Below are positions 2,767-30,606 of a DNA stretch of 30,788 bases, in pieces. Positions within the stretch are counted from its first letter, which is position 1. Each line of letters starts with the position of its first letter. The DNA comes from Coleofasciculus chthonoplastes F2-STO-03 (GTDB taxonomy: Bacteria > Cyanobacteriota > Cyanobacteriia > Cyanobacteriales > Coleofasciculaceae): NCBI GenBank assembly GCA_040222015.1, contig JAVJWO010000158.1, forward strand, positions 1 to 30,788. Direction: 5' to 3'. The translations under genes and the position numbers were made by a program. Under the pieces are notes generated by a model that searched no databases, was not told where the DNA came from, and was given only the letters and a program-made list of their open reading frames with translations.

Positions 2767-3894
2767 TCATAAAATACAATGAATATCTTGTTTTTGACCA
2801 TATTTGTAAAGACACCCAGGTTCAAATCGATTACCCTCTTGCTGCCACCAAGTTTTGGCGCACACCACTACACTATTTAAATCATCATGTTCAACAGAAA
2901 GCTTTGGACTGAATTCAGCAAAATTCTTGCCCGTTATAATGTATAGTTCCTGGATTAATTGACTTTGTTTATTTGGTTTATGCTGATTATTTTCTAAAAC
3001 TTTGATCACATTTGGCAACCAAATAGGTTGACATAATCGGTAACAAACATTGCCGACCAATTCATTTTTATATTCATCCCACCACTTTTCTAATTCTTCT
3101 ATTTTTTGATTGTCATCCAAGCCTTCTCCCGTGAGTCCATGTAGCTTATAAATTGCTTCTTGTGATAGATCTGAATTTTCATCTTCTACACAAAATATCA
3201 ACTCCCTAATTACTTCTTTTACCCCTAAATAGAACATCGCATCCATCGCATCCCTACGAATCTCAGTGATCTGATCATGCAAGGCTTCTTTAAGCACAGA
3301 AAATAGTCCTGGTGCCACTATATGCTTCAAAGCTTTAACCGCCTCAATTCGGATAATTGAATCTTCTTCTCTTGCTAAGGAGATAATAAGAGATGCTTTT
3401 TGCTGATCACCTAATTTTGCTAGAGCTACTATAGTCGAAATTACAAAATTGTAATGATACTTCAGTTCATCCTGTTCTAGAGTTTGTTCAACAACTCGGA
3501 GCAATTGTTCTATAGCTTGCGAATCCTGTAATTCTCCTAGAGCATTAGCTGCCCAAGTCCTCGCACTCTCAAGATTTTCCACATCCATTAATTGGTTTAT
3601 TAAGGGTTGTAAAGCTCGTCGATCTTTCAACTTTCCTAGCATTTTAAATGCAGTGGAACGTAAATAGGTATTTTCCTCGTTCAAAAGAGGAATCATAAGC
3701 GGAACAATTTCTGGATTGTTTATATGGAAAATTACCTGGCGTAAGTTCCGAGCTTCTCTTGTAGAACTTTCACGCATAGCACTAATGATTGATGGAACTG
3801 CTGTTACACCAAGTTGTACTAACGAAGACGTTGATGCACTTGCTTCTGCATCATTTTTTTTTACATTCTCAATTAAATTTTCAATTTTATTCAT
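2767..3894 (-). CDS. HEAT-repeat (PBS lyase-like) protein, candidate immunity/partner of the upstream toxin
   Basis: Repeated HEAT units (LRSTAFKMLGKLKDRRALQPLI, ARTWAANALGELQDSQAIEQLL, IRIEAVKALKHI, IRRDAMDAMFYLG). Starts 38 bp after the toxin stop on the same strand; AT-rich. Confidence 0.75.
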   Translation of the reverse strand: MNKIENLIENVKKNDAEASASTSSLVQLGVTAVPSIISAMRESSTREARNLRQVIFHINNPEIVPLMIPLLNEENTYLRSTAFKMLGKLKDRRALQPLINQLMDVENLESARTWAANALGELQDSQAIEQLLRVVEQTLEQDELKYHYNFVISTIVALAKLGDQQKASLIISLAREEDSIIRIEAVKALKHIVAPGLFSVLKEALHDQITEIRRDAMDAMFYLGVKEVIRELIFCVEDENSDLSQEAIYKLHGLTGEGLDDNQKIEELEKWWDEYKNELVGNVCYRLCQPIWLPNVIKVLENNQHKPNKQSQLIQELYIITGKNFAEFSPKLSVEHDDLNSVVVCAKTWWQQEGNRFEPGCLYKYGQKQDIHCIL

Positions 3895-3932
3895 GCTAAA
3901 TTATTTCAACTATACTTTTTGTCTTTAAAAAA

Positions 3933-8607: not shown

Positions 8608-8693
8608 ATTAGAACGTGAGGCTTCTCGCAGATAAAGCTAAACTTCCTGCAATGTCTGGGAACCTTGAATATTTGATGTATGTTTAGTGTCCT

Positions 8694-8919
8694 TACGCTG
8701 GGATTTGGGGGTAGCGTTGACGGTGGGACGATTTGCGCCGTCAATGTGGCAACATGGGCTGAATCCCATGAAGTTGACAGGACTCTTTAGCCAAATTATG
8801 GATGATAGAGTTTCGCTCGTCTCGACAAGCCACACCCGCTTGTGAGAGTTTCATGCATCTGCATCTGGGGATTGACGCCCAAGGATTACGTTCAAATTTA
8901 GCCTGTCACCCTATTGTGG
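8694..8919 (+). pseudogene. Internally deleted duplicate fragment of the carotenoid-isomerase-like gene
   Basis: 8694-8806 aligns with 287-399 and 8807-8919 with 768-880, with scattered substitutions; 400-767 is absent. Confidence 0.9.
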
Positions 8920-8957
8920 CACGTATAATTAAACATGAAAAACGACACAAAAAAAAT

Positions 8958-9230
8958 ATGCTAGCTTTACCTAAATTGCACAACCTACCAAATAGTTTCC
9001 CTGTTGAAGGAGCGGTTCGTATTGAATTGGTTGAAGGAATTCCTCTATTTCGGGCATCCATTACTGTTCAAGAACGTATTGACACACTATTAGAGAAACA
9101 ACAAAAATTACCCCTCAATACTGAAGAAGAACAAGAACTAGATTTATATGAAGAAATTGATGACTATCTCAGTTTTGTAAATCGGACTGTTCGCAATCTT
9201 TATTTAACCCAAAATCAATTCAATTTATAA
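8958..9230 (+). CDS. Small hypothetical protein (90 aa), antitoxin-like partner of the downstream HNH
   Basis: ATG at 8958 (MLALPKL...); C-terminal QERIDTLLEKQQKLPLNTEEEQELDLYEEIDDYLS helical motif; 3 bp from the HNH gene. The longer ORF from 8802 only adds the carotenoid-gene fragment. Confidence 0.65.
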   Translation: MLALPKLHNLPNSFPVEGAVRIELVEGIPLFRASITVQERIDTLLEKQQKLPLNTEEEQELDLYEEIDDYLSFVNRTVRNLYLTQNQFNL

Positions 9231-9233
9231 ACG

Positions 9234-9686
9234 ATGCCTGCTCGTCGTCCAATTTCTGAAACGATCCAATACCAAGTTCGTCAGCGGGCTAATCTTTTAT
9301 GCGAATACTGTCATGCTTCTGAACAATGGCAATATGTAACCTTTACTATCGAGCATATCATTCCACTCGCGAAAAATGGAGCCGATACTCTTGACAATTT
9401 GGCTTTAGCTTGCTTCCATTGTAACCGCAAGAAATCAGATCGAATGACAGCCATTGATCCTCAGTCAGAGGCAGAAGTCCCCCTGTTTAACCCCAGACAA
9501 GATAATTGGAGTAATCATTTTATTTGGTCAGCGGATGGACTATTCATCATCGGTTTAACCCCAGTTGGACGGACAACGGTTACAGCATTAGCCTTAAATC
9601 GAGAAAGAGTCATTAATATTCGTGCGGCGGACAAAGCTGTAGGGCGACATCCACTACCAGGCGATCCAATTCAGTCAGAAAATTGA
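9234..9686 (+). CDS. HNH endonuclease
   Basis: CEYC...IEHIIPLAKNGADTLDNLALACFHCNRKK, LFNPRQDNWSNHF. Confidence 0.9.
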   Translation: MPARRPISETIQYQVRQRANLLCEYCHASEQWQYVTFTIEHIIPLAKNGADTLDNLALACFHCNRKKSDRMTAIDPQSEAEVPLFNPRQDNWSNHFIWSADGLFIIGLTPVGRTTVTALALNRERVINIRAADKAVGRHPLPGDPIQSEN

Positions 9687-12570: not shown

Positions 12571-12909
12571 CTAATTGCCAGTGATTTCTACAAGCCTTTC
12601 GCCCGATCGCAACAGTTCGAGAGCATCTGGCAAAGTGGCAGTGAGGATTTCTTTAAGCCGTGCATTAGACGTATTGCCACAAGTCAGCCAAATCACCTGT
12701 GGAGGTGAACCATATCGTTCAACTAATTCGACAAAATCTCTATCTTTGGTCATCACAACTACCCCCTGAGCCTTCGCCGCCTCAAAAATTTCACGATCCT
12801 CTGCGTCTCTCAACCCAAGATCGCGCACAGCTATAGTTGTTATACCGAAGGTAGCAGTAATCCAAGCAGCAATAGCAGGCGGCAGTTGGGCATTGAGCCA
12901 GATAATCAT
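12571..12909 (-). CDS. DUF5615 family PIN-like toxin
   Basis: MIIWLNAQLPP...VRDLGLRDAEDREIF...VMTKDRDF...PPQVIWLTCGNTSN; 4-bp overlap with the DUF433 gene. The first usually acidic PIN position reads N. Confidence 0.88.
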   Translation of the reverse strand: MIIWLNAQLPPAIAAWITATFGITTIAVRDLGLRDAEDREIFEAAKAQGVVVMTKDRDFVELVERYGSPPQVIWLTCGNTSNARLKEILTATLPDALELLRSGERLVEITGN

Positions 12910-13130
12910 GCCGCAAGCACTGGATGATCGACTTTACGTGCTGCATAGAGTAAAGCTGCCTTGAGATCGTCCATCTCAAGGTCTGGCATTTCTTCTAAGA
13001 TTTGCTCAAAGCTTAAACGAGCAGCGAGTAAATCTAATACATCCGACACCCTGATTCTCATCCCACGGATGCAAGGACGACCACCACACTGCTTGGGATT
13101 GACTGTAATTCTGTCAAGCAAACTGGACAC
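12906..13130 (-). CDS. DUF433 family antitoxin
   Basis: RITVNPKQCGGRPCIRGMRIRVSDVLDLLA...ILEEMPDLEMDDLKAALLYA. Confidence 0.92.
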   Translation of the reverse strand: MSSLLDRITVNPKQCGGRPCIRGMRIRVSDVLDLLAARLSFEQILEEMPDLEMDDLKAALLYAARKVDHPVLAA

Positions 13131-15112: not shown

Positions 15113-15457
15113 ATGTCTGAGCAAGTGCGTTACATTACCAACGAGCAGGGGGAGCGAGTTGGCGTCTTGTTAGATTTGGAAGCCTATAATCGACTAGCGA
15201 ACCCATTAGCTCTAGATGACGAGTGCTTAATTGGCTTAAGCCACGATGAGTTGCAAGCATTAGCCGATAGTAAGCTAGCTCCCGCAGCACAAAATCAATT
15301 GAACGATTTGCTAGTTCAGAATGCAGAATCTCAGCTTTCTGCCGACGAAATTGCAAATCTAGACCGTCTCCTAGCACAAGTCGATCAACTGACAATCCTC
15401 AAAACCAGAGCCAGATACACTCTACACTGCCTAGAAACAGTGGCAACGGTGGCGTGA
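15113..15457 (+). CDS. Small hypothetical protein, antitoxin-like partner of the downstream HNH
   Basis: N-terminal VRYITNEQGERVGVLLDLEAY and C-terminal QLNDLLVQNAESQLSADEIANLDRLLAQVDQLTILKTRA; GTGA overlap with the HNH gene. Confidence 0.75.
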   Translation: MSEQVRYITNEQGERVGVLLDLEAYNRLANPLALDDECLIGLSHDELQALADSKLAPAAQNQLNDLLVQNAESQLSADEIANLDRLLAQVDQLTILKTRARYTLHCLETVATVA

Positions 15458-15882
15458 GCGCTTATATTCCTGTTGAGCTACAGCGACAAATTCGCGCCCA
15501 TTTTAGGGATTGCTGCGCCTATTGCCGCACGGCTGAAGCTCTGACGGTTGCAATTTTTGAATTTGAACACATTGTCCCCCGCTCGGCTGGTGGAGAGACA
15601 ATTTTCCAGAATCTCTGCCTCTCCTGTCCTACCTGTAATCGCTACAAAGCCAGTTTCAAAACAGCATTAGACCCTACTACCCAGCAGACGGTTCCTTTGT
15701 TTCATCCTCATCATCAAGTGTGGGAGGAGCATTTTACATGGAGTGAGGATGGGACAGAGTTAATAGGATTGACACCGATTGGTCGAGCAACAATTGCTGC
15801 ATTGAAGATGAATCGTCCTCAGTTAATTCGGGTGCGTCGGATGTGGGTGAAGGTAGGGGAACATCCACCAAAATTTGAGTGA
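15454..15882 (+). CDS. HNH endonuclease
   Basis: CAYC...FEHIVPRSAGGETIFQNLCLSCPTCNRYK, LFHPHHQVWEEHF; paralog of 9234-9686. Confidence 0.9.
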   Translation: MSAYIPVELQRQIRAHFRDCCAYCRTAEALTVAIFEFEHIVPRSAGGETIFQNLCLSCPTCNRYKASFKTALDPTTQQTVPLFHPHHQVWEEHFTWSEDGTELIGLTPIGRATIAALKMNRPQLIRVRRMWVKVGEHPPKFE

Positions 15883-16222: not shown

Positions 16223-16281
16223 GCCTTTGCGTAAGTCCTACAATTTTCAGCAAAGGGCAAGAGGGCAAAAAGAGCAAATGG
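16223..16281 (-). repeat. Conserved 3' flank of a DGR target gene, copy 1
   Basis: CCATTTGCTCTTTTTGCCCTCTTGCCCTTTGCTGAAAATTGTAGGACTTACGCA directly after the stop; near-identical to 18784-18841. Confidence 0.7.
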
Positions 16282-17100
16282 CTACTGAAGAATCCTCGGA
16301 TACTCGCACACTACCCGAAACCCGAGATAGACGTCGAAGTCGAAGCCGGGGTGAGCGTAGAAGCGAGATGCAGAACGACAATCTCTCGGATTGACGTCCC
16401 AGCAACCGCCGCGTCGCACAAGAAAAGCCTTTTCATCATCGGTTAACCAGGCACTTCCATCATTCGGTGCGCCCTCGTAATTACCATGCCAGTGGTCTAA
16501 ACACCATTCCCACACATTTCCATGTATATCACACAAGCCAAACGCATTGGCTATGCCAAAATGGTTGACTGGTGTGGTTTCTTTTCGGTATTCTCCTTTT
16601 ACTCCATCACCGTAGGTCTGAGTTGCATCATAGTTTGCTAATTCTGCGGTGATTGTTTCACCAAAATAAAAAGGAGTCGTTGTTCCAGCTCTGGCAGCAT
16701 ATTCCCACTCGGCTTCGGTTGGTAGGCGATAGGTGCGATTAGTGTGTTGAGAAAGGCGCTGACAAAACTCCACTGCATCGTACCAATTTACAGATTCCAC
16801 CGGACGATTATCACCTTTAAAGTAAGCAGGAGCGGGATTAAGTTTAAGGTTAACTTGAGGTAAAGAGGTAACAAATCGCCATTGAGCTTGAGTAACGGGA
16901 TACCGCCCCATAAAGAAAGTAGGAACCGTGACTGAATGCTGTGGACTTTCATCGTCATATCGCTCTAACTCATCTGGCGGTGAACCCATCAGGAATGTTC
17001 CACCTGGAATGAGAATCATGTCCAGACCAATATCGCTCCCCAAGTCTTCTGTAAAATACCGAGTTTGACTTTTTTTTCGCTCGATGATGAATTCAGCCAT
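16282..17100 (-). CDS. Standalone formylglycine-generating enzyme (FGE-sulfatase / CLec-fold) domain protein, putative DGR target
   Basis: MILIPGGTFLMGS, YPVTQAQW, RPVESVNWYDA, YRLPTEAEWEYAARAG, GNVWEWC, RGGCW...GFRVV. Confidence 0.92.
   Translation of the reverse strand: MAEFIIERKKSQTRYFTEDLGSDIGLDMILIPGGTFLMGSPPDELERYDDESPQHSVTVPTFFMGRYPVTQAQWRFVTSLPQVNLKLNPAPAYFKGDNRPVESVNWYDAVEFCQRLSQHTNRTYRLPTEAEWEYAARAGTTTPFYFGETITAELANYDATQTYGDGVKGEYRKETTPVNHFGIANAFGLCDIHGNVWEWCLDHWHGNYEGAPNDGSAWLTDDEKAFLVRRGGCWDVNPRDCRSASRFYAHPGFDFDVYLGFRVVCEYPRILQ
16306..16413 (-). other. DGR-type variable region VR-A (108 bp)
   Basis: Differs from VR-B and VR-C mainly at codon positions 1-2 of NNC/NNT codons; one extra NNC codon. 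Confidence 0.8.
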
Positions 17101-17160
17101 TGCTGGAGACAGAAAATTAAGGGTTGTCTAATATAATTCCAAAACCAAGAAGGCTAATTC

Positions 17161-18660
17161 CTACTCTTGTGGTGAGGGTTCAGATTCTAGATAATGAAGG
17201 AAGTCGAGCAATTGTTCATCGGTTAGTAACTGGCGCGATCGCTTCCCATAAGTTTTTACCAGATAATCACGCCCTTGTTGGTTTGTCCAGCCCAAACGCT
17301 TGAGTTCCACATTCGTTCTAGCAATGATCTCAGAAAAGTCCATAGGGCTAGCTGTTGGAGAGGGTTCAGATTCTAGATAGTGAAGGAAGTCGAGCAATTG
17401 CTCATCGGTTAGTAACTGGCGCGATCGCTTCCCATAAGTTTTTACCAGATAATCACGCCCTTGTTGAGCTGTCCAGCCCAAACGCTTGAGTTCCACGTTC
17501 GTTCTACCAATGATCTCAGAAAAGTCCATAGGGCTAGCTGTTGGAGAGGGTTCAGATTCTAGATAATGAAGGAAGTTGAGCAATTGCTCATCGGTTAGTA
17601 ACTGGCGTGATCGCTTCCCATAAGTTTTTATCAGATAATCACGCCCTTGTTGATTTGTCCAGCCCAAACGCTTGAGTTCCACATTCGTTCTAGCAATGAT
17701 CTCAGAAAAGTCCATAGGGCTAGCTGTTGGAGGGGTTTCGTTCGTATCTGTCTCTAGTTCTTTCTGGGTGTACGATGTGAAGGGCGACTCTGCGAGAAGA
17801 ATCCTCGGCAACTCGCACACTACCCGAAACCCGAGAGTGATGTCGTCGATGCCGGGGTTAATGCTGACGCGAGATGCACAACGACAATACCTAGGATTGA
17901 TGTCCCAGGAACCGCCGCGTAGTATACGCCAAGCACTCTCATCATCGGTTAACCAAGCACTTCCATCATTGGGTGCGCCCTCGTAATTACCATGCCAATG
18001 ATCCAAACACCATTCCCAAACATTGCCATGCATATCACACAAGCCAAACCCATTGGCTATGCCAAAATGCTCTACTGGTGTGGTTTCCTTGCGGAATTCT
18101 CCTTTTGTCCCTCGTCCATAAGCACCCGACCAACCAGATTCTTTGTCATTAGTTCCGCGATAATTCGCTAAATCAGTGGTAATCGTTTCCCCAAAATGAA
18201 AGGGCGTTGTTGTTCCAGCACGACAAGCATATTCCCATTCAGCTTCAGTAGGTAGGCGATAGGTGCGATGAGTGTATTGAGAAAGGCGCTGGCAAAACTC
18301 CACTGCATCGTACCAACTAACACATTCTACCGGACGGTTCTCACCTTTGAAACGAGAAGAATCTGGATTAAGTTTGCGGTTAACTTGGGGCAAGGAAGCC
18401 ACTACCCGCCACTGCGCCTGAGTTACTGGATACTTACCCATAAAAAAACTAGGCACGTTCACCCGATGCACGGGTTCCTCTTTTGCGTTTCGCTCTGGTT
18501 CATACTCTGGGGAACCCATATTGAAGCTGCCTTTGGGTATTAGCATCATGCGTATGCTCACTGCATCGCTCAGTTGCTCTAGGAAAAATTGAGCTTCTCC
18601 CTGATGCCGCTTGATGATGACTTTGGGTTTCCCTTCCTGAGTTTCTAGGGGCTGGCTCAT
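17161..18660 (-). CDS. FGE/CLec domain protein with an internal variable region and three C-terminal 62-aa repeats
   Basis: Same FGE motifs as its neighbours; the frame reads through where the paralogs stop and continues into 3x PTASPMDFSEII.RTNVELKRLGWT.QQGRDYL.KTYGKRSRQLLTDEQLL.FLHYLESEPS. Confidence 0.9.
   Translation of the reverse strand: MSQPLETQEGKPKVIIKRHQGEAQFFLEQLSDAVSIRMMLIPKGSFNMGSPEYEPERNAKEEPVHRVNVPSFFMGKYPVTQAQWRVVASLPQVNRKLNPDSSRFKGENRPVECVSWYDAVEFCQRLSQYTHRTYRLPTEAEWEYACRAGTTTPFHFGETITTDLANYRGTNDKESGWSGAYGRGTKGEFRKETTPVEHFGIANGFGLCDMHGNVWEWCLDHWHGNYEGAPNDGSAWLTDDESAWRILRGGSWDINPRYCRCASRVSINPGIDDITLGFRVVCELPRILLAESPFTSYTQKELETDTNETPPTASPMDFSEIIARTNVELKRLGWTNQQGRDYLIKTYGKRSRQLLTDEQLLNFLHYLESEPSPTASPMDFSEIIGRTNVELKRLGWTAQQGRDYLVKTYGKRSRQLLTDEQLLDFLHYLESEPSPTASPMDFSEIIARTNVELKRLGWTNQQGRDYLVKTYGKRSRQLLTDEQLLDFLHYLESEPSPQE
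17174..17731 (-). repeat. Tandem coding repeat, 3 x 186 bp
   Basis: Units begin at 17174, 17360 and 17546 and are nearly identical. Confidence 0.95.
17815..17919 (-). other. DGR-type variable region VR-B (105 bp)
   Basis: TGG GAC ATC AAT...CGC GTC AGC ATT AAC CCC GGC ATC GAC GAC ATC ACT CTC GGG TTT CGG GTA GTG TGC. Confidence 0.8.
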
Positions 18661-18750
18661 TCTCTAAACTTCCTGCACGAATCAAAACTTGCCTTCCTAA
18701 CCCCACCATATCCTCTGTCTAGACTTACCAAAAAAGTAAGGGCGCCCATC

Positions 18751-18776
18751 AAGGGCGCACGTCGGTGCGCCCCTAC
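18751..18776 (-). repeat. GTAG-type REP-like palindrome
   Basis: GTAGGGGCGCACCGACGTGCGCCCTT on the minus strand; the intact version of the element interrupted at 15971. Confidence 0.7.
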
Positions 18777-18783
18777 ATATCGT

Positions 18784-18841
18784 GCCTGTGCGTAAGTCCT
18801 AAAATTTTCAGCCAAGGGCAAGAGGGCAAAAGAGCAAAGGG
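18784..18841 (-). repeat. Conserved 3' flank of a DGR target gene, copy 2
   Basis: CCCTTTGCTCTTTTGCCCTCTTGCCCTTGGCTGAAAATTTTAGGACTTACGCA directly after the stop. Confidence 0.7.
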
Positions 18842-21670
18842 CTACTGACGAATCCTCGGAATCTCGCACACTACCCGAAACCCGATATGGTTGTTGTCGT
18901 TGCCGGGGAAAATGAGGTGGCGAGATGCACAACGACAATTCCTTGGAACGTTGAGCCAAGAACCGCCGCGTCGCACACGCCGAACACTCTCATCATCGGT
19001 TAACCAAGCACTTCCATCATTCGGTGCGCCCTCGTAACTACCATGCCAATGATCCAAACACCATTCCCAAACGTTCCCATGCATATCGCACAAACCAAAC
19101 GCATTAGCTATGCCAAAATGGTCTACTGGTGTGGTTTCTCGGCGGTCTTCTCCTTTTACTCCATTCCCATAGATCTCAGTTGCATGATAGTTCGCCAGTT
19201 CTGTGGTAATTGTTTCCCCAAAATGAAAAGGAGTGGTTGTTCCAGCACGACAAGCATATTCCCATTCTGCTTCGGTGGGTAGGCGATAACTGCGATGAGT
19301 GTATTGAGAAAGGCGCTGACAAAACTCCACTGCATTGTACCAACTGACACGTTCTACTGGACGATTATCACCTTTGAAATGGGAGGGATTAGGATTGAGT
19401 ATGCGGTTAACTTTGGGTAAAGAAGCAACAAATCGCCATTGGGCTTGAGTAATGGGATATTTGCCCATGAAAAAACTACTGACAACGACCTCATGCTGGG
19501 GTCTTTCATTATTGGAGCTTTTTAGTTCCTGCTGAGGCGAACCCATGAGGAACGTTCCATCCGGAATCGCAACCATTTCTAAGATGAGATTCTCTCCGAG
19601 GACTTCGATGAATTGGTTGTTGCTCCCCTGCTGACGCTGGACTACCCATTGGTTCTCTTGTCGGGTAAGCGTGGCAACTGTAAATTCAAAGGGTTGTAGG
19701 TCATGTTCCCTTGTCTCAGGTTCCGACTCTAGGGTAATAGTGGCAATGCTAAACTGCTCAACCTGGAGAGGAGGAAAATACGAGTCTACATCTGAGGTTT
19801 TGACCAAACGTGCCGTCTCAAATTCCAGCGTCTTTAAGTCGGGCAAAGATGGTTCTGATACTGGCTTAATCCAATCGGTTCTCCGTTGAGCATCCTGTTC
19901 CACCAGTTCAGCCAGCGATGCAAACTCACCCCCTAAACTATGGAGGACTTGAGTCGCAATTTGAGCGAAGGGGAGAATCGCGGCTTGGGTTTCCTGACTC
20001 CAATCGGACTTGGGGGAGAGTAATGCGGTAAAGCTTTTAATCGGTGGAAGGTTAAGGCTTTTGGCAATGGCTTCGGATAGGGTGTCTAAAACGGTTGTCG
20101 TCTCATCAATCGGAGTTCTCTGAATGAGTAACTCTCGTACTCCCGGAGCAAAGTCATATTCGATAGGCTCCCTAGGCGATTTCCGGGGATTGACCTTACT
20201 GTTCACAATATCTGGAAAACCTCTCTCCAAACCTCTCTCCTGCAAGGAGAGAGGCTTTGAGTTCTCCTCCCTCGCAGGGGGGAACGAGGGGGGTTGGGGG
20301 GTTAGGTTTTTCACTGGCTCCAACAGCTTACTGTCATACACCTCAGCCAGATGGATAGGTTTGGCTTCTGGCAGTAACAGCTTCTGAATCAAATTCACCA
20401 CAGACAAGCTAACTGGTACTGCCGCCATCATGGTGGCTAATTGTTGAGCAATGGGAGATGCCGTTGCCTCAAACAATTCAATCCGGGCTTCTGGAGACTG
20501 AGGATCGACAACAAATTCAGCGCGATCGCGTTCCTCATCCTGCACCCAATTCAGGTCAAACCATCGCGCCGGGGTGCGCTGACGACCAACTGCCGCAACC
20601 ACTAAAGCCCATTGTTTCAAAGACTTAGCCGTTAAGGTCACTATCGGTACCGTTAGAGTATCAGACGATTCAAGTTCACGCCAGCCTAACCGTTGATTTA
20701 TCTTGAGTTTGTGTCCTGGCGCACCGGGAGTTAATGCACTAACTTGGACACTAACCCCAACATCCAACTCACTTTGACTCCAGAGGCGTTCCGGTAAAAG
20801 CTGCACGATTGCAGTTGCGCCGTGGGTACTCCACAGCTTCAGGAGGTTATGGATATCCCCTGATTTCCAAGCGGACGAACGACAATCACTCACCAACAAT
20901 ACCAGCCGCCGTCCGGTGGGATCGATGAGTTCTCGCGGACTGCGCGGACGCGAGGTAAACTCAGGAGGCTGGGATTTCTGAGAAACTAGGTTTAATTTGC
21001 CTTGTTCGGTGCCTTCCAACCACCAAGTCCGCACATTCCGAAATGCCCCTTGTCGCTCTAAAATCTGCCGAAATTCCATCAGCGTGGCATCCCAGATAAA
21101 GCTAAATTCAGAGGCTTCAATAACGAATTCCAAATTCAACCAGCGTTCAGAAGCACCTTTGAGGACAGGCAGCCAGATTTCCTCCTCAGCAATACGATTC
21201 ACTGTCGCCGCTTCATCTAAAACCTGCCGCGTCTGAGAGCGGACTTTTCGCTTCAGGGGACGTAGCGATCGCGCGATGGATAGTTTATCTTGTAACGCTG
21301 GGGCGGCTTGAACTTGAATCGGTAAGCCAGATTCGGGTTCCTCTTCAGTAATATCCTCTTCGGTCATATCAGCCGTCGATGGACTCGATTGAGGCAGATA
21401 GGCAGGCACAGAAGGCGGCGGCGGTAATGGCGGCAACTTTGTCTCAACGTCTTCGATTATCACCGTAGAGGTGTCCTCATCCTGTCCAGAACCATCAGAA
21501 TCATCATCGACAACCGGACTTTCATCCGTCCCCATCTGCAGTGCCAACCAAATCGCATCAGCAATGTCTTCCGCACTAAGCAGAGATTCCGCCTCGGTAA
21601 ACGACGCTAAATCCTCATCGCTTAAAATTAAGCCTGCTTGTTGCAGTTTATCGAGCAACCGAGCAATCAT
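18842..21670 (-). CDS. SAV_2336-like N-terminal / vWA-type protein fused to a C-terminal FGE/CLec domain (vWA component of a VMAP system)
   Basis: IADAIWLA, LSIARSLRPLKR...LDEAATVNRIAE, GAFRNVRTW, GRRLVLLVSDCRSSAW, VQLLPERLW, YDFAPGVRELL; C-terminal FGE motifs; ATGA overlap with the MoxR gene. Confidence 0.87.
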   Translation of the reverse strand: MIARLLDKLQQAGLILSDEDLASFTEAESLLSAEDIADAIWLALQMGTDESPVVDDDSDGSGQDEDTSTVIIEDVETKLPPLPPPPSVPAYLPQSSPSTADMTEEDITEEEPESGLPIQVQAAPALQDKLSIARSLRPLKRKVRSQTRQVLDEAATVNRIAEEEIWLPVLKGASERWLNLEFVIEASEFSFIWDATLMEFRQILERQGAFRNVRTWWLEGTEQGKLNLVSQKSQPPEFTSRPRSPRELIDPTGRRLVLLVSDCRSSAWKSGDIHNLLKLWSTHGATAIVQLLPERLWSQSELDVGVSVQVSALTPGAPGHKLKINQRLGWRELESSDTLTVPIVTLTAKSLKQWALVVAAVGRQRTPARWFDLNWVQDEERDRAEFVVDPQSPEARIELFEATASPIAQQLATMMAAVPVSLSVVNLIQKLLLPEAKPIHLAEVYDSKLLEPVKNLTPQPPSFPPAREENSKPLSLQERGLERGFPDIVNSKVNPRKSPREPIEYDFAPGVRELLIQRTPIDETTTVLDTLSEAIAKSLNLPPIKSFTALLSPKSDWSQETQAAILPFAQIATQVLHSLGGEFASLAELVEQDAQRRTDWIKPVSEPSLPDLKTLEFETARLVKTSDVDSYFPPLQVEQFSIATITLESEPETREHDLQPFEFTVATLTRQENQWVVQRQQGSNNQFIEVLGENLILEMVAIPDGTFLMGSPQQELKSSNNERPQHEVVVSSFFMGKYPITQAQWRFVASLPKVNRILNPNPSHFKGDNRPVERVSWYNAVEFCQRLSQYTHRSYRLPTEAEWEYACRAGTTTPFHFGETITTELANYHATEIYGNGVKGEDRRETTPVDHFGIANAFGLCDMHGNVWEWCLDHWHGSYEGAPNDGSAWLTDDESVRRVRRGGSWLNVPRNCRCASRHLIFPGNDNNHIGFRVVCEIPRIRQ
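18866..18970 (-). other. DGR-type variable region VR-C (105 bp)
   Basis: TGG CTC AAC GTT...CGC CAC CTC ATT TTC CCC GGC AAC GAC AAC AAC CAT ATC GGG TTT CGG; retains several unmutated AAC codons. Confidence 0.8.
20211..20310. repeat. In-frame dispersed repeat inside the vWA-FGE gene
   Basis: AAAACCTCTCTCCAAACCTCTCTCCTGCAAGGAGAGAGGC...GGGGGTTGGGGGGTTAGGTTTT, translating NLTPQPPSFPPAREENSKPLSLQERGLERGFP; internal hairpin CCTCTCTCC-TGCAA-GGAGAGAGG. Confidence 0.7.
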
Positions 21671-22713
21671 TTCTTATCCATGACAGGGCGCGAACTATCC
21701 AGTTCAGCCAACAGGTATCGAATCAACTTTTCTTGATCATCCCCCACCCATTCTCGCTCACGAGTCACCATAAAGATAGCATTCAACAGTTGATCGGTTG
21801 CTAATGCTTCTTTTCTACGTCGGTCAAGGAAGGTTTTAATTAGCGTATCAACGTCTTTTCTCGATGCTATCTCATCTCCTAAATGAGCCTTGATAATCCG
21901 TTCTAGCTCAGAGCGATTAGGTTCTCGCATAGTGAGGCGCAAACAACGCCGTAAAAATGGTGGCGGAAAGTCGCGTTCCCCATTACTCGTCAATATCACC
22001 AACGGAAATTCTTGACAAGTAATCCGCCCCCCTTGGATTTGGACTCGTTTATCAGCACAGGTTACTTCTTCATCATCGGTATAAGCCGTTCGCACTGAAA
22101 CAGTTTTCGACTCGTTCTGATTACCATCCCCTTTTTCCAGACGGGCTAATTCAGCAATCTCAAAGCGCCCTTCCTCAAAAATTGCCAGTAAATCATTGGG
22201 TAAGTCAATATCACTCTTATCAATTTCATCAATTACCAAGACACGAGGACGTTGAGACGGGAGGAAGGCAGTACCCAGTGGTCCTAAAGTAATATAATCT
22301 GCTATTTGTTGCGGCTCATCGGTTTGACCCCCACTCGATTCTGCTTGCTTGACAGCCTGTAAGCGAGCGATCGCATCATAGGTATAAAGCCCATCTTTGA
22401 GGGTTGTACGGGTGGTAATCGACCAATAGAGGACTTCACCCAGCTTCAATTCTCGCGCTACAGCATAAGCTAAAGACGATTTACCCGTACCCGGTTTGCC
22501 TGTAAGTAGTAAAGGTCTACGCAGGTACAACGCCGCATTAACCATTTTTACCTCTTCCGGACGACACTGAAAGGTTTCCCCTCGGTGTTTCCTGCGGCTC
22601 ACCCCCGGACTAATATCTTTCCCAAAAGGACGCCAATTCGGAGCATCCGGCAAGTTATCAATGCCGTCATGGGGGTTGCGGTTGTCGCCCTGAAAGATTT
22701 TCCAGTCACTCAT
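21667..22713 (-). CDS. MoxR-family AAA+ ATPase
   Basis: AALYLRRPLLLTGKPGTGKS (Walker A), VLVIDEIDKSDIDLPNDLL (Walker B), ILTSNGERDFPPPFLRRC, ATDQLLNA. Confidence 0.93.
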   Translation of the reverse strand: MSDWKIFQGDNRNPHDGIDNLPDAPNWRPFGKDISPGVSRRKHRGETFQCRPEEVKMVNAALYLRRPLLLTGKPGTGKSSLAYAVARELKLGEVLYWSITTRTTLKDGLYTYDAIARLQAVKQAESSGGQTDEPQQIADYITLGPLGTAFLPSQRPRVLVIDEIDKSDIDLPNDLLAIFEEGRFEIAELARLEKGDGNQNESKTVSVRTAYTDDEEVTCADKRVQIQGGRITCQEFPLVILTSNGERDFPPPFLRRCLRLTMREPNRSELERIIKAHLGDEIASRKDVDTLIKTFLDRRRKEALATDQLLNAIFMVTREREWVGDDQEKLIRYLLAELDSSRPVMDKK

Positions 22714-22728
22714 AGCTACTTTAATAGG

Positions 22729-24123
22729 TCAGGCAGATTTCGGCGGTACTAAGTCTGGATCATCCCACAGCAGAGATAGGTGATGCCCAATATGACAATT
22801 TATAGGCTTGTCGCGAGAGTCAAGACGCTCATTTTTTACAGTTTGGGGTAATCTCTCTAGGATACAGGCATCCAAAACGCGATTTAACTCCGCTTCGTTT
22901 GTTGATACAGATAAGTTAGAGCGACCCCAAAGCGCTAAAGGCAGCCCTGCTTTTGAAATTAACTTAACGATATCAGTAAAACTATCGTGATGGGGGGCTT
23001 TAATGAGTTTTAATCCCATCACGTATTCACTTCCTTCATTACACAGCTCACAATAGAACCCATCTAAATCATCTAAATTGCAGTCATCAAAGCTTTGAAA
23101 TATATTAGCTGCATTTTCCTGAAGTAATTTGTTTACCAGATTCCATTTTCTCTTCCATTTTTTGCAGTACTGATTACTCCGGCTCAACCGCTCATACAGC
23201 CGAACAAAGACCTTATATTTATAACCGATGGGAATATCATCTTTGATTGCCTTAATCAGTTTCCAACAATCGGCATCACAATTGAGGCGTTCTTGAGGCA
23301 AGAAAACATGAACCTCTGTATCGTCTGTATCGGAGGACAGCTCATTATCAACATTCCCTTGTTCAAAATATTGCTTTAATACGTCAGGAATTGCTTCCCA
23401 GGAGTAAGTTTCATCCCCCGTTAACCCACTATTTATATCAAGACCGACTGTGCGATAGCCTTGTCGAGCTGTTTTGTATTGCTCAACGTTTTCAATCAGC
23501 CACACTTGCACCCGATAGGCTTCTCCATCTTGAGATTGCGTTGCTGCCTCATCACTATAGCTAATCAAAACAAACAAGGCTGCTTTACCATTTGTGTCTT
23601 GCTTATCTCGCTGCGTTTCTATCTGTCTTAAAAGGTTAGACCAAACTTTACAGTGTTCTTCTCCCCATTGTTGAAGTGACCTAATCAAATCATGGTTTTT
23701 TGAAATAAAAGTCAGCCAAGCGGCAAATTCTTCTAGAGCCGTGGAATTTGATTGACCTTTAGGAATTTTTAAGAGTTCAGTAATCAGCGATTCGATTGTT
23801 TCTGGAGTTGAACGTCTCTTAAATGAGCGTGCCTTTACCGTAGCTTGATACGCCTGCTGCATTTCACCCAATTGAGCATTATGGCGTGGCAAAATTTCCC
23901 TGAGTTCATCTAAAGCAGCATCTTGAAGTTCTCGCTTACGGGCTTGGATTTGGTTCTCGCACTTATCCATGTCTTGCCCAATTTGTTCAAGTTGGCGTTC
24001 CAACTTATTTTGCGTAGAACCATCTTGCTCAGTCCGAAGCTGGGACTTAACTTTCTCGTAGTCCCGCTCCAGATCGTTCAACTTATCTTCCCATAATTCG
24101 AGCGTGTAATCCTTGTTAGCCAT
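22729..24123 (-). CDS. vWA-MoxR-associated protein (VMAP): N-terminal EAD-like coiled hairpin and VMAP-C-like domain
   Basis: C-terminal VHVFLPQERLNCDADCW...W.RKW...GLPLALWGR...HLSLLWDDPDLVPP; directly upstream of MoxR; N-terminus homologous to the C-terminus of the CHAT protein. Confidence 0.8.
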   Translation of the reverse strand: MANKDYTLELWEDKLNDLERDYEKVKSQLRTEQDGSTQNKLERQLEQIGQDMDKCENQIQARKRELQDAALDELREILPRHNAQLGEMQQAYQATVKARSFKRRSTPETIESLITELLKIPKGQSNSTALEEFAAWLTFISKNHDLIRSLQQWGEEHCKVWSNLLRQIETQRDKQDTNGKAALFVLISYSDEAATQSQDGEAYRVQVWLIENVEQYKTARQGYRTVGLDINSGLTGDETYSWEAIPDVLKQYFEQGNVDNELSSDTDDTEVHVFLPQERLNCDADCWKLIKAIKDDIPIGYKYKVFVRLYERLSRSNQYCKKWKRKWNLVNKLLQENAANIFQSFDDCNLDDLDGFYCELCNEGSEYVMGLKLIKAPHHDSFTDIVKLISKAGLPLALWGRSNLSVSTNEAELNRVLDACILERLPQTVKNERLDSRDKPINCHIGHHLSLLWDDPDLVPPKSA

Positions 24124-25687
24124 TCCCTTGTTTTAACCGATCTAATTGCTGCTCACGTTGAGCCATATCCTGCCCAATTTGTTCAAGTTGACGTTCTAAC
24201 TTATTTTGTGTCGCTCCGTCTAGTTCAGTCCGAAGCTGGGATTTAACTTTGTCGTAGTCTTGTTCGAGATCATCAAGTTCGGTTGTCAAGCGTTCCAACT
24301 CTCGCTGCTGAAAGCGACTTAACGGTTGTTTTTGTGGTTGCTTATTGCTCAACTGCGTTGAGTCTTGGGATACCTTATCTGATTGAACCGGAGAAGCTGT
24401 AAATAACTGTCCTCCTTCATTATCCTGCCAACGCAAATACAGCACCGGACGATACCACTGATTACCCTCCCCACCACCCATTGCTTCCTGTGCCTGACTG
24501 ATAGCCGTCGCTAACGAGTTCTTACAACCTAAAGAGCGGTAGAATTGCTCGGCAAATTGGATGGCAGCATCAACTCTAACGCTGTACTGCATCGCTACAA
24601 CTGCGGGAATCCGGTGACTAATCAACTGCTGTGCTACGCCATTAAAAACCGATTCTCCACCGAATGCCGTGCCAGACTTGCAGGCACTTAACACTGCAAC
24701 AGCCACTCCACCCCGCCGTTGGGTTGAATCATCTCCAAAGCTGGTTTTCTGGAGCAATTCCCCTAACTCCTTGGCGCTGACATAATCTGGTTCATCCTCC
24801 TGTGTTTCAAACAGCAGATATCCTTGTGGTTCTGGTAACGCTTCCCCACAGTTCTTGCATTTTTCTGTGCTTAGATTTCCATGAATAGTTCGGCAGGAAG
24901 ATATATTACAGCGTCTGCCAAAGAAACCATGACCATCAAAGTGAAAGATATGCGGTGCTTGGTTGCCTTGGTGTTCTGTTAAATAGCTTCTTAAATGGTT
25001 CACAGAGGCTGGCTCTAGAACCTCTACATGGATATGCCCTTCCGCCTGTGCCTTCTCCAAACCCTTGAAGACCGCATTTTGCTCCTTCTTGGACAAGGGC
25101 AGTAACTTATTTTCTGCATCTGATGCCGCAGAGGAAACTAGGAGTACATTGAGTTGCTGAACGGGCGGCAAGTTAGGAATAGTTGCCACATGAGCAATAT
25201 GGCGAAAAAACCTTACCTGGTGATGGGCAAGAAACTTCTGTTTATCATGCGCTAACTCCCACGGGTAGTCGGGTAGACGGCTGCGCTTGGTAATTTCAGC
25301 ATTGAATTCCAGTTGAATGTGGAGTTGTGTGGAGTTGTCTTCAGCACGAGCGAGCGCACGTTGCAGCACATCTCGCACCCCTCCCACTGGAAAAAGCGAT
25401 TCATACATTGCCTGTCCAATCTGAGCTAGCATTGCGGGATGGAAGCTTTCCTTGTTGCTACTGAGTAGCCCTTGCTCCACCATCCATTCCTGCTCTCCCT
25501 GGCGTTGAAAGACAGAGGCACGAAATTCGCTAACTTCTAAAGCTTTAATCACAGTTGTGCGCCAGCGCTCGGCAGTCTCAAAGAAAGGTAGCCTGGAATC
25601 TGCCTCAGCTTGCCCAACCTTAGAGCGAGCAATCACCTTGAATTGAGCAGCATCAACGGCTGAAAGGTAGATTGTCAGTATTTCCAT
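24116..25687 (-). CDS. CHAT (caspase-like) protease with C-terminal EAD-like domain
   Basis: LPDYPWELAHD, catalytic His HIFHFDGHG, catalytic Cys VLSACKSG, IPAVVAMQYSV, QWYRPVLY; 8-bp overlap with VMAP. Start at ATG 25687, or alternatively at 25705. Confidence 0.9.
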   Translation of the reverse strand: MEILTIYLSAVDAAQFKVIARSKVGQAEADSRLPFFETAERWRTTVIKALEVSEFRASVFQRQGEQEWMVEQGLLSSNKESFHPAMLAQIGQAMYESLFPVGGVRDVLQRALARAEDNSTQLHIQLEFNAEITKRSRLPDYPWELAHDKQKFLAHHQVRFFRHIAHVATIPNLPPVQQLNVLLVSSAASDAENKLLPLSKKEQNAVFKGLEKAQAEGHIHVEVLEPASVNHLRSYLTEHQGNQAPHIFHFDGHGFFGRRCNISSCRTIHGNLSTEKCKNCGEALPEPQGYLLFETQEDEPDYVSAKELGELLQKTSFGDDSTQRRGGVAVAVLSACKSGTAFGGESVFNGVAQQLISHRIPAVVAMQYSVRVDAAIQFAEQFYRSLGCKNSLATAISQAQEAMGGGEGNQWYRPVLYLRWQDNEGGQLFTASPVQSDKVSQDSTQLSNKQPQKQPLSRFQQRELERLTTELDDLEQDYDKVKSQLRTELDGATQNKLERQLEQIGQDMAQREQQLDRLKQGNG

Positions 25688-25713
25688 ACACCACCTAGCG
25701 ATCACTCAGGGGA

Positions 25714-26127
25714 TTAAACAATGCCCGCATCAACATCTTCATCATCACCTTTGAAGAGTGCCTCTATACTCTTATTCAGTGTCGGTAGCACCTGTTCTGA
25801 ACGCAGGGATTTATAAGCCTCCATCAGACGCTCCTTATCGAAGAGTGGAGACAGTTTGACGTTCACTTTATGAACTTCGTTTCGCCCCAAGTCACCACCC
25901 GCTTCAGCTCCTAGCTCTCCCCCAGTACCCAAGACATTAATTTTGATACCCGCCTTTCCACTTGCTTTGGCAGTCCGCTTTACCGTAACTTGTAGCTCCA
26001 GTTCCACAGACTCAACAAACAGGAAGGGAGCATCCTTATCCTTACCAGGTGCTACAGAGAGAAGGTCTTGTTTAACCTGTTGAATAAACTCAGCCAGTCC
26101 AATCGAGCGGTTATCGTTGTCAGACAT
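25714..26127 (-). CDS. Trypco2-like (trypsin co-occurring) small protein
   Basis: IGLAEFIQQVKQDL...FLFVESVELELQVTVKR...KAGIKINVLG...VHKVNVKLSP; the ATG at 26127 (MSDNDN) is a likelier start than 26220. Confidence 0.75.
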   Translation of the reverse strand: MSDNDNRSIGLAEFIQQVKQDLLSVAPGKDKDAPFLFVESVELELQVTVKRTAKASGKAGIKINVLGTGGELGAEAGGDLGRNEVHKVNVKLSPLFDKERLMEAYKSLRSEQVLPTLNKSIEALFKGDDEDVDAGIV

Positions 26128-26234
26128 TAGTAGTATTATAGTATCCTGTATAGTCAACTTCTGATTGTACACTTGGTCTACTTCAGGAAACAGTTTGTGT
26201 TTTGCACCGTAACCCACCATTATCGTTTGTTTTC

Positions 26235-26479: not shown

Positions 26480-26794
26480 TTAAAAAACAGGTTGCAATAC
26501 CTCCACCTGCTTCAACTCCAAGCCTTGCTCAAATATCTGATCAATCGGTAACATTTGATCCTCATCTGTCATAAACTTATGGTCTTTTGTCGCCCGAATC
26601 GTAGCACCATCCTCTAACACATATTCAAACACCTCTTGTTCACCGCGATTATGCCATTGTGCAATGGGTTGGGTGTAGACATAGCCATGCTCATCCACAC
26701 TATAAACTGTACACTCAATCTGCTTTTCTACAATTTCCCCAATTGCCACAGCGCCATATTCAACCGTGAGAATCTGTGTATCATAACTCAAGCA
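26480..26794 (-). other. N-terminal half of the naturally split DnaE intein (104 aa)
   Basis: [14 protein letters not shown]...[18 protein letters not shown]...[11 protein letters not shown] followed by a stop; no C-terminal HN. Confidence 0.96.
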
Positions 26795-29700
26795 GTATTC
26801 AGCAAATAGGATCATCTGCTCGAATAACTCTTCCGCAATCCGTTTTGCTACACCATTTTTTGCCGCCCCATCGATAAAAATTCCTCGATGTTTCTCCATT
26901 TCTGCCACTTTCTTTTTACCCATACAGTTATGAGCAATAAAGTCATTGGCAATAAAGTTATGAGTTTGGCAAATGCTTAAGTCAAAAACCTCCTCTTGAC
27001 CAACATATTCAATCGAGACAATTTCATCCCAGAATACATCAGACTCGGCAATTGCCATCAGTGCTTTATCCGGCAAAGCCGTGGCAAAATTCTGGACTCG
27101 ATGACGTGCTAAACTCCGAGTGGGAACTTTCTGGAAATTTAAACCAGAAGACATGGTTCCCTGTCGGACACCAGCAGCGTGATCAATCTGTTTCCACGTC
27201 ATACCCTTTGCTTTTTTCGCTTGGGCAATTAAGGAAATCACGTCTGGAGGAATTGAATGTTTTGACTGATTCTGCGACTTATTCTTTATCACCGCATAAC
27301 ACGTTTGAGCTTGTTGCCATTTATAGCGACTCAAAAAGGGTTGAATCAGTTCACAGAATTTAAGCATATCCTCACGCCCTGTAATTTGCGCTTTGTAGGA
27401 AATGTGAGGCTTGCCATTGTACTGAATTGTTTTAACGTTAAACAGGGCAACAATACCCAGTCGCAGGAGTAAATGCTGAATTTGTCTGATGAGGATTTCA
27501 GAGGTTGATGTATAGTCTGTATGTCCAATTTTACTATCAAAGCTGCCATCTGTTGACCATAATGTTCCTAAAAACAGTTGCAATTGACGGCGAGATAGTG
27601 TGAACACCCACTTGGGAATTTTTTTATCTCTTGAATGAGCGCGTTTAATATAATGATCAACCCAATTGTTAAAGGCAGAAAGAAAACCAATCCGGACATA
27701 GGTGACGGATTGACGATTCGGATGGAACTGATGATCGACTGGTGCAGTCGTCCCAAAAAGTTGTTCTGCACAATGATTAAAATCAGCAATCAGTTCAGGG
27801 TCACTATTACAGAAATAGCTACAGGAAGGACTCTTTGTCGAAAGATGACCATCACCTATTAAATAAGCAGTTAGCTTAATTTGAGCATCTGATATATCAC
27901 TCTCTGCCGCCAGTGGCAATATCTTAGCTAGTCCAATCCGACTACCAACCTTAAACTGATCCAGAGGCTGCCATCCTAACAGTGAATAGAAACGATGATC
28001 CGCTGTCGCTTTAATTTTACGATTGGTTTTCGTGATGATTTCCCAAACATCTCGCACGCCGTTCGGATGAATTTCACTAATCGGTTGCTGAGTAATCTTT
28101 TGCGTTACCTGATCCAGAGACAACACCTCTCGTCCCAACCAATACTCAGGTTTGGATGCAATGTCTTTGAGAGACACTAAACGCCCCGTTTCTGCATCAA
28201 TAATCTCCGTTGAACCACTCAGACATCGGCGTAGTAAATCCGCTTGACCTAGGGAATACCCCGCCAAATCCTGAGCCATTTTCATGATTTGCTCTTGATA
28301 ACAAAGCGTACCATACGTTTCTTTTAAAATTGGCTCTAATAGCGGATGTTGATATTCAACCTTTTCTTTCCCATGTTTCCGATTAATAAACTTAGGAATT
28401 AGACCTGCATCCAAAGGTCCCGGACGATACAATGCCAAAATCGAAGAAATATCTTCAATACTCGACGGTTTCAACTCCCGCACCACCTGACGCATCCCAG
28501 AGGATTCTAATTGAAAAATTCCCTCTAACTCGCCTTTCTCTAACACTTTATAGGTCTGTTTTATGTCATCGGGGATTTTCTTAATTTCCCCCTTTGCCAC
28601 AATCTGAAATGCTTTCCGTTCATCCAGGGGTAACTGATCCAGATCTAAAGTTATATTTTGATGTTGGCGAATCAATTCCGCTGTTTTCTGAATCGTGGTT
28701 AAATTTTTCAGACCTAGAAAATCCATTTTCAAGAGTCCGAGGGATTCTAAGTCCTCCATAAAATACTGAGTAATCACCGCCCCCTCATTATTCACCTGCA
28801 AGGGAACAATTTCATCTAAGGGTTCGGACGAAATCACCACCCCCGCCGCGTGAACGCCAAAGGTTTTATTGGTTCCCTCAATCCGGATTGCCATATCCAG
28901 CCAGCGCTGCACTTCGGGGTTATTTAAGTAAGCATCTCTAAACTCTGGGGTGGGCGTTTTCTCAGAAATCATTACCTTTAACTTAGTGGGTTTTCCCCGT
29001 GAAACCGGAATCATTTTTGCCATCCGATCTGATTCCCCATAGGGAATATTCAACACCCTGGCGACATCTTTTAATACCGCCTTTGATGTCATCCGGTTAA
29101 ATGTAATAATTTGTGCCACCCGATCTGCCCCATATTTGTGGGTGACATATTCAATTACCTCATCCCGACGTTCAATACAGAAATCCGTATCAATATCAGG
29201 CATAGATTTCCGTTCCGGATTGAGAAAGCGCTCAAATAAAAGCCCATGATGCACCGGATCAATATTAGTAATTTTCAGGGAATAGGCAACTAAGGAACCC
29301 GCCGCCGAACCCCGTCCTGGACCGACAGGAATCTTCTGATCTCTGGCATATTTAATATAATCCCATACGACTAAAAAGTAGGTGGAAAATCCCATCTGCT
29401 GCATCATTTTCAGCTCATATTCCAGCCGTTCTTTATAGACGAGATCGATGTCACTGCGAGAACGACATCCCATGCGATCCAATAATCCCTCCCAAGTAAC
29501 TTCTTCTAAGTAACTATCGGCGCTGTGACCCTTGGGAACGGGATAATTGGGGATGCGTGGTTCCCCCATAATGTTGTAACGTTTTACCTTATCCGCTACC
29601 TCTAACGTATTCGCGATCGCCTCCTGGATCACCTCATCGGGTAAATGATCCCGAAATAGCTGTGCCATCTCTTCGGCGGACTTGAGATACTCGGTTCCGG

Positions 29701-30421
29701 AGTAGCGCATCCGCTTCTCTTCTGAAATTAATTTCCCGATTTGAATACAGAGTAAGGCGTCATGGGCTTCGACATCGTAGCAGGAGATAAAATGGGAGTC
29801 ATTTGTGGCAACCAGTTTAATCTCTAACTCACGAGCAATTTTAACAATTTCTACGTTAACAATTCGGTCTTCAATTGACCCATGATCTTGAATTTCTAGA
29901 TAATAATCGTCACCAAAAATCTCTTTATACCATTTGGCAAGCTCTCGTGCCTTTTGCACGTCACCTTTGAGAATGGCTTGGGGTACTTCTCCGCCTAAAC
30001 AAGCACTGGTGACGATTAATCCCTCACTGTATTGTTTGAGTAATTCTTTATTAATACAAGGACGCTGAAAAATTCCTTTTCCTTGGATTCCTTTCAGATG
30101 AGAAATTGTCGTCAGTTTAACTAGGTTCTTATAGCCTTGGGTATTTTTTGCCAAGACAACTTGATGGTATTTGCGCTGTTTCTTCTTCGTCTTATCTTGA
30201 ATATCCCCATTAACTACATACATTTCATTGCCGATAATCGGCTTAATCCCTTTCCCCCGACAGACTTTAATCAACTCGATCGCGCCATACATTACCCCAT
30301 GATCCGTCAGTGCGATCGCACTCATCCCTAATTCCACCGCCCGATCCACCAGTTGCGGTAGCTGGGACGCGCCATCAAGTAAGCTGTAGTCACTGTGAAT
30401 ATGTAGACCAACGAAGGACAT
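26480..30421 (-). CDS. dnaE: DNA polymerase III alpha subunit, N-terminal half (dnaE-N), with a cis-intein and the N-half of the split intein
   Basis: PHP domain [61 protein letters not shown]; ends in AEY|CLSYDT. Confidence 0.98.
26927..28225 (-). mobile_element. Cis-splicing intein (433 aa) with LAGLIDADG homing endonuclease
   Basis: [14 protein letters not shown]...IKATADHRF...[10 protein letters not shown]...[11 protein letters not shown]...[27 protein letters not shown]. Confidence 0.95.
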
Positions 30422-30581
30422 AGAACAAATAGAGATAAGGATTCCGTTAAGGGGTGCGATCGCTCACCTTCATGGTAAGCTGACGGGTCTAATGATAGTC
30501 CCGATTCATCCAGATTGACTCTGGCTACCCCACATATAAGGATACATCATCCAGTTAAACCCTATATGTAGTCACACCACC

Positions 30582-30606
30582 AGTAGGGGCTTGGTTACTG
30601 AGCCCT
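30582..30606 (+). repeat. GTAG-type REP-like hairpin
   Basis: GTAGGGGCTTGGTTACTGAGCCCT, with GGGCT(T/C)...GAGCCC arms. Confidence 0.45.

Follow-up and report, generated by a model that had tools for sequence, protein, structure and literature searches.

We analysed a 30,788-nt stretch of DNA (the window), which is the entire contig C158 of the 7.72-Mb draft genome of Coleofasciculus chthonoplastes F2-STO-03. Its minus strand carries three tandem genes with C-type lectin (CLec) domains of the FGE type, and the tips of all three were written by adenine-specific retrohoming of a diversity-generating retroelement (DGR). The writing DGR was probably of the clade-5E type, used one template family and acted in the past. 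At a probability of about 75%, the best explanation is that these are DGR-written but orphaned targets in an intact VMAP operon, that the cassette is gone and that, since it is missing from the genome, the tips are presumably no longer rewritten in this strain. From the assembly, the cassette is absent. As comparisons of strains support, the tips now appear to acquire point mutations, and whole alleles appear to be exchanged between strains and between paralogs by recombination. The value of the locus is that it offers a clean case of the aftermath of cassette loss, in which the targets keep purifying selection, individual alleles are retained in more than one species, and alleles pass from one background to another.

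Each of the three genes is an open reading frame (ORF) ending in a PF03781 domain (that of gene 2 reads on further, as described below), as the original prediction made from the letters of the window had it, and all codons that it quoted from the variable repeats (VRs) were present at the places given. VR1 (18863..18970), VR2 (17812..17919) and VR3 (16303..16413, one codon longer than the others) were aligned as 99-nt cores, omitting VR3's extra codon, with 192 aligned upstream codons as the control. Variable columns fell on codon positions 1, 2 and 3 in the ratio 13/12/3 in the VR cores vs 41/33/91 upstream (Fisher p = 8e-6), confirming the proposed pattern of fixed third and variable first and second positions. 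The third base was unchanged in 14 of 15 amino-acid-changing VR codons (upstream 21/54), and all variable VR codons ended in C or T (45/45, upstream 95/162). At constant third positions VR1 and VR2 were more alike than their flanks (1/32 vs 23/92, p = 0.008). The VR sits at the C-terminus of a CLec/FGE domain and bears the codon-position signature, as is characteristic of a DGR target gene.

As there is no cognate template repeat (TR), the adenine bias of the VRs was scored by proxy against six genuine TRs from other cyanobacteria. Four or more of these six TRs have an A at 27 columns, and 23 of the 28 variable columns were among these 27 (p = 7e-14). There were small deviations from a single clean template: at three variable columns none of the six foreign TRs has an A, and VR3 carries 3 extra nt, whereas mismatches in genuine VR/TR pairs (n = 7) were at template A in 108 of 108 cases. 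Among 16 same-length members of the window VR family, A was present in all 30 hypervariable columns and was the commonest letter in 21. The codon-position signature and the placing of variable columns on TR adenine columns together indicate that the CLec tips are DGR-written, and the adenine-specific origin that had been proposed for them was upheld.

No reverse transcriptase (RT) or TR was found inside the window, as the original prediction had stated. The source assembly comprises 219 contigs (N50 60 kb, 99.99% complete, no N), and no TR was detected in it by blastn with word size 7, by an adenine-aware scan of every position or by a profile of eight TR-RNA regions; these searches returned solely seven coding VRs and one spacer remnant. 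Neither a full-length RT of the DGR clade nor a whole Avd was present in the assembly, the only matches being an RT fragment at C52:31457-31600 and Avd codons 1-48/50 at C52:30439-30582. Of the three other full RT matches in the genome (24-30% identical), one is an RT-Cas1 fusion and the remaining two are group II intron-like ORFs, and a fourth PF00078 match, on contig C151, did not match the DGR profile. The RT-Cas1 fusion gene, at G000:C215:4025-7845, adjoins a repeat array resembling CRISPR. A TR elsewhere in the genome with a perfect match at non-adenine sites, which is the test of an active remote target used by Doré et al. 2024, was likewise absent from the assembly. The window targets belong to no complete DGR, and in this genome they fail that test. 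The further claim of the original prediction, that a template and RT elsewhere in the genome diversify the targets in trans, found no support, with no TR, DGR RT or whole Avd in the assembly.

The two fragments belong to a broken cassette which lies 30 kb inside the 119.7-kb contig C52, i.e. mid-contig. Its order is target gene, Avd codons 1-48 (30439-30582), approximately 870 bp of unrelated DNA, RT fragment and spacer. The RT remnant covers residues ~280-328 (31457-31600) and was returned as a 44-residue fragment in the RT search. The post-TR spacer (31601-31650), which is 88% identical to an intact spacer, directly abuts the RT remnant, and therefore the end of the RT and the TR are deleted from this cassette. 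Repeats break up the wreck, as does a small toxin-antitoxin-like remnant, and the same wreck was found in the congeners G002 and G007 with 94-95% identity. The surrounding region (G000:C52:24000-40500) contains two more VMAP-type operons with four FGE genes, and the wreck comes after the first of them.

Relatives and public collections were also surveyed. A full-length DGR RT was found in none of nine representatives of the genus Coleofasciculus, and a TR likewise in none of the nine. Among 52 family representatives, three had a full-length DGR RT; Avd was full-length in the same survey's three genomes and partial in 10 others (of which a part was inspected; that of G050 lies at a contig end). 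In the family RT survey, 40 of 44-56 candidates were scored in four genomes, another family survey took 11 candidates per genome, and the unpublished genome G044 was counted only as negative in the tallies. Orthologous arrays in G003, G021, G006 and L118 had no cassette in cis. Cassette decay seems to be recurrent in this family. The original prediction had named the lack of a template or RT in this genome or close relatives as grounds for its refutation; such a lack was found here and in all nine genus representatives, although a full-length Avd and RT are recorded for one Coleofasciculus metagenome-assembled genome.

With a motif search, which could miss a variant, the template of the window family was found in none of 185,579 species genomes, and a general family motif gave 10 loci in the species genomes, none with a TR. 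In 401 order-level genomes (a sample without G003 and G006, both searched separately), the motif search returned five matches, all of them TRs of other families. Motif searches of JGI metagenome contigs gave no locus and then 11 loci, none of which was a TR of the window family; these were four family members, one distant cyanobacterial-like VR, two loci of an unrelated DGR and four chance or unrelated matches. No template match was found in viral contigs by motif search, and plasmids gave four records at 70-74% only. Two candidates were rejected. A candidate TR in G003, which matches the VR part only, belongs as VR to a third gene that has an internal deletion, and a partial match at G017:C264 is a broken vWA gene.

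Comparison of strains supported the conclusion that the tips are old alleles shuffled among strains. Compared with the window, a single contig of sequencing run X1 had 11 differences in 929 bases of gene 3 and five in 222 bases around VR2, and all five of the latter fell outside 17812-17919, leaving the VR2 span identical; the chance of two independent retrohoming products being identical is near 1e-15 (a rough figure). Run X3 had 4 differences in 260 bases across the place of VR2. VR3 did not align in the X1 contig though the gene 3 body was 99% identical, and another, older allele stands in its place. By eye, the 40 readable letters of this X1 allele matched the alleles of L177 (39) and G003 (38), and the L177 gene body was only 603/680 identical to that of the window. 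One VR3 allele lineage occurs in G003, L177 and X1; among the 111 sites of VR3, L177 and G003 differ at nine, and six of these nine are not of the adenine type. The tract swapped in X1 extends into the loop upstream of the template-covered part (real templates cover 6-10 nt before the core), which points to recombination and not to retrohoming. VR1 is of the same allele lineage as its counterpart in the metagenome locus L172, with 7 differences in 105 nt; at hypervariable columns the two agree in 10 of 13 letters other than A. L172 is a mosaic, being identical to the window at 296/300 positions upstream of VR1 but at 272/300 upstream of VR2. Outside the VRs the ratio of nonsynonymous to synonymous substitution rates (dN/dS) was 0.14-0.21 in 12 comparisons, indicating purifying selection, whereas inside the VRs it was 1.0-2.4 in five comparisons.

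Several observations weigh against orphaned targets that are no longer rewritten. With a draft assembly of N50 60 kb, a cassette could lie on a replicon that was not assembled or not binned. The VRs beside the C52 wreck are of another family (15 fixed differences from the window VRs, 10 of them without A); because they differ at non-A sites, the C52 cassette was not the window's template, and that the window family lost a cassette of its own is thus read from its absence, no scar having been seen. For Coleofasciculus sp. A1-SPW-01, both an Avd (90-92% identical to the fragment) and an RT are recorded at full length, and ten full-length RTs (93-99.7% alike, including that of A1-SPW-01) are the closest relatives of the C52 RT fragment. 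The run comparisons rest on contigs, not raw reads (20 runs contain the stretch and the contigs of four were compared), and 4 of the 7 differences between VR1 and L172 are first-position changes at adenine-type columns. In the C52/C218 family (family B), the VR alleles found in different members of the genus are independent, many VR pairs have no third-position difference although their flanks are 83-92% identical, and the three genomes sharing the C52 wreck carry different alleles beside it. As judged from these sequences, DGR activity in the genus was recent or is still going on in some strains. Purifying selection can also mask DGR activity, according to the part of Roux 2021 (PMC8144416) that concerns it.

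These points bear on the alternative of a live remote DGR, by which an intact Avd-RT-TR cassette on DNA missing from the draft assembly would rewrite the three VRs in trans. We consider this unlikely. There are intact enzymes in related populations, trans activity was argued for DGRs 4 and 5 of Thiohalocapsa in the section of PMC10907252 devoted to them, and Kaur 2020 (PMC7159879) found TRs either close by or at other places in the genome. However, neither TR nor RT occurred in any of the nine genus representatives, and the motif searches of the order, species and JGI metagenome collections, which can miss a variant, gave no TR of this family. The three VRs disagree at three non-A columns, and VR3 is one codon longer. 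Furthermore, VR2 is unchanged in the diverged strain (X1) and its 3' tail is lost.

If the targets are orphaned in this strain, the intact DGR enzymes of other Coleofasciculus-like populations may have supplied alleles that were imported by recombination. It is possible, and we put it forward tentatively, that most Coleofasciculus strains deleted the cassette while a minority keep it, and that DGR-written alleles circulate by recombination as long-lived cross-species polymorphisms, like plant resistance or major histocompatibility complex alleles; the window tips would then be draws from this pool and not the work of an enzyme of the strain itself. A related reading, in which a minority of strains with a live, family-matching TR would provide fresh alleles that cassette-less strains import by recombination, is rather improbable. 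It would account for the mosaic structure of L172, for the X1 gene 3 with its near-identical body, other allele and swapped tract including the loop, and for the clade of intact RT and Avd in the genus, and intact and broken cassettes coexist in one population in the relevant account of Doré 2024 (PMC10907252). Yet no TR of the window family was found anywhere searched, the swapped alleles seen are old and common to several species, not fresh, and if the JGI contigs with intact RTs were in the scanned collection, their TR is of another family. Should intact cassettes in a few strains indeed feed an allele pool, this would amount to a population-level division of labour for hypermutation.

That no DGR was ever involved, with positive selection on the binding loop and gene conversion among paralogs making the pattern, is very improbable and is already largely refuted by the codon and adenine signature: the failure to find a cognate TR and the evident recombination among alleles would suit it, but amino-acid selection would not fix third bases (14/15), limit codons to C/T endings (45/45) or place 23/28 changes at columns where unrelated TRs have A, and the same operon occurs with Avd-RT-TR in cis in G038 and G030 (L045 and L046).

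The orphaned targets lie in what domain matches identify as an intact cyanobacterial VMAP ternary conflict operon, with a predicted role in defence, in agreement with the earlier assignment of the array to a conflict system. All components of the VMAP ternary system were recognised (VMAP-M and VMAP-C, a MoxR-type AAA+ and a vWA component with a C-terminal FGS; Pfam/NF041121), in the order Trypco2, CHAT-EAD9, EAD9-VMAP, MoxR, vWA-CLec and two further CLec genes, all on the minus strand. The first gene (25714..26220) encodes a Trypco2 adaptor (PF19631, E 4.6e-18) and is followed by a CHAT (caspase-like) peptidase with a C-terminal EAD9 (24116..25705; PF12770, E 1.1e-24; PF19962, E 2.9e-10) and by the VMAP protein with EAD9, VMAP-M1 and VMAP-C (22729..24123; PF20028, E 2.6e-32; PF19963, E 3.4e-18; PF19962, E 2.7e-10). 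The MoxR-type AAA+ ATPase gene (21667..22713; dN/dS 0.14) gave no match above cut-off with MoxR-specific models, and the call rests on its AAA_5 match (E 9e-10) and its position between the VMAP and vWA genes. In the orthologous operon of G021 (L037, 13859-16715), a longer VMAP and a hydrolase-like gene are found, not Trypco2 and CHAT-EAD9; the effector end of the operon is exchanged between genera.

Target gene 1 (18842..21670, 942 aa) has an N-terminal SAV_2336-type domain (NF041121, 410 bits, cut-off 200) and a C-terminal FGE/CLec domain (PF03781, residues 698-934). SAV_2336_NTERM, which we take to be the vWA domain of VMAP systems, fits the position of gene 1 in the operon. Target gene 2 (17161..18660, 499 aa) has an FGE/CLec domain (PF03781, residues 38-281), and its frame runs on into a ~61-aa domain that is present three times. 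These tandem copies (17164..17700) represent the domain with which slr1353-family proteins end (NF058667), and they were copied from contig C45, where a housekeeping gene encodes it (82% identity). The triple fusion behind this CLec domain was also seen in L172 and L177; in L118 the domain forms an ORF of its own, and the X1 contig skips 17361-17734. Such a fusion agrees with the theme of captured modules or decoys in VMAP systems. Target gene 3 (16282..17100, 272 aa) encodes a stand-alone FGE/CLec protein (PF03781), whose PDB matches included PvdO (E 8e-39) and Treponema TvpA (2y3c), with the VR on the TvpA C-terminus; its alignments to FGE enzymes end before the region of the FGE catalytic residues.

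Pyrimidine-rich tails resembling those after intact-DGR targets were present past the stops of gene 1 (18814..18841, minus strand) and gene 3 (16253..16281, minus strand), and the first of these may be a homing-initiation element. VR2, inside the gene 2 ORF, has neither a stop nor such a tail. Folding of the DNA 3' of the VRs revealed no significant hairpin, and the controls equally had none.

It is most likely that the three proteins still serve as sensors that bind ligands, now in a fixed panel. Defence activity is a prediction here, as it is in the cited papers. In a scheme derived from Kaur 2020 and Doré 2024, the CLec tip would bind an invader molecule, MoxR would remodel the vWA partner, and EAD9-EAD9 contact would recruit the caspase-like CHAT effector to VMAP.

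Other features were noted in the window. A DnaE N-terminal part (26480-30421, minus strand) contains an internal intein with a LAGLIDADG domain (residues ~749-1165) and a second, C-terminal intein-like stretch which we take to be a split intein. At 2767-8243 (minus strand), a 1436-aa eCIS-core (PF13699) protein with an HNH-like C-terminal tip, recognised by eye, is followed by a HEAT-repeat gene; the two look like a polymorphic toxin/immunity pair. Positions 8638-8900 repeat a piece of the oxidoreductase gene at 148-1401, about 8 kb off and beyond the block of the eCIS protein, which suggests a duplication at an insertion site. Three two-gene modules (8802-9686, 12571-13130 and 15113-15882) resemble toxin-antitoxin pairs, two of them with HNH-type genes (15454-15882 confirmed by Pfam).

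The general arrangement is already described, both VMAP operons with DGR-written CLec tips and cassette decay being known; a narrow open-access check, which is no proof of novelty, found no paper on DGRs in Coleofasciculus or on orphan VRs with recombination or balancing selection. The pairing of CLec sensors, VMAP and DGR was described by Kaur 2020 (PMC7159879) and Doré 2024 (PMC10907252). In the passages of Kaur et al. 2020 (PMC7159879) on cyanobacterial VMAP ternary systems, the FGS is fused to the vWA component, always C-terminally, and ~80% are DGR-associated. The window resembles these systems in VMAP, MoxR and vWA-FGS order, C-terminal FGS and hypervariable VR. It differs in that their TRs are nearby or elsewhere in the genome whereas this genome has none, and in that Trypco2 stands beside a CHAT peptidase, while in those passages Trypco is with trypsin and caspase with an alpha/beta-hydrolase.

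The clade 5E loci of Thiohalocapsa PB-PSB1, as covered in the relevant sections of Doré et al. 2024 (PMC10907252), are alike in having CLec sensors of VMAP operons, cassettes broken by mobile DNA and, for DGR 7, VRs without a perfect TR. However, true remote targets of Thiohalocapsa match a same-genome TR at all non-A sites, whereas no TR is left for the window, and Thiohalocapsa has tandem domains in one gene where the window has three separate target genes. For cyanobacterial remote variable proteins, the part of Vallota-Eastman et al. 2020 (PMC7517822) that treats them suggests that diversification components are removed once a variant is selected. The dispersed CLec paralogs reported there are as in this genome, but those remote targets were defined against a same-genome TR, which the window targets do not have.

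G038 (L045) and G030 (L046) share with the window a VMAP-MoxR-vWA/FGE operon and a second FGE gene; in both, Avd-RT-TR is retained between the targets and VR and TR disagree at A only, whereas the window is without a cassette. Finally, TvpA of Treponema denticola (PDB 2y3c) is also an FGE-type CLec protein, to whose C-terminal segment the window VR aligns (E 1e-20). TvpA is a lipoprotein with a linked DGR, as far as it is treated in Doré 2024 (PMC10907252), whereas the window proteins sit in a conflict operon.

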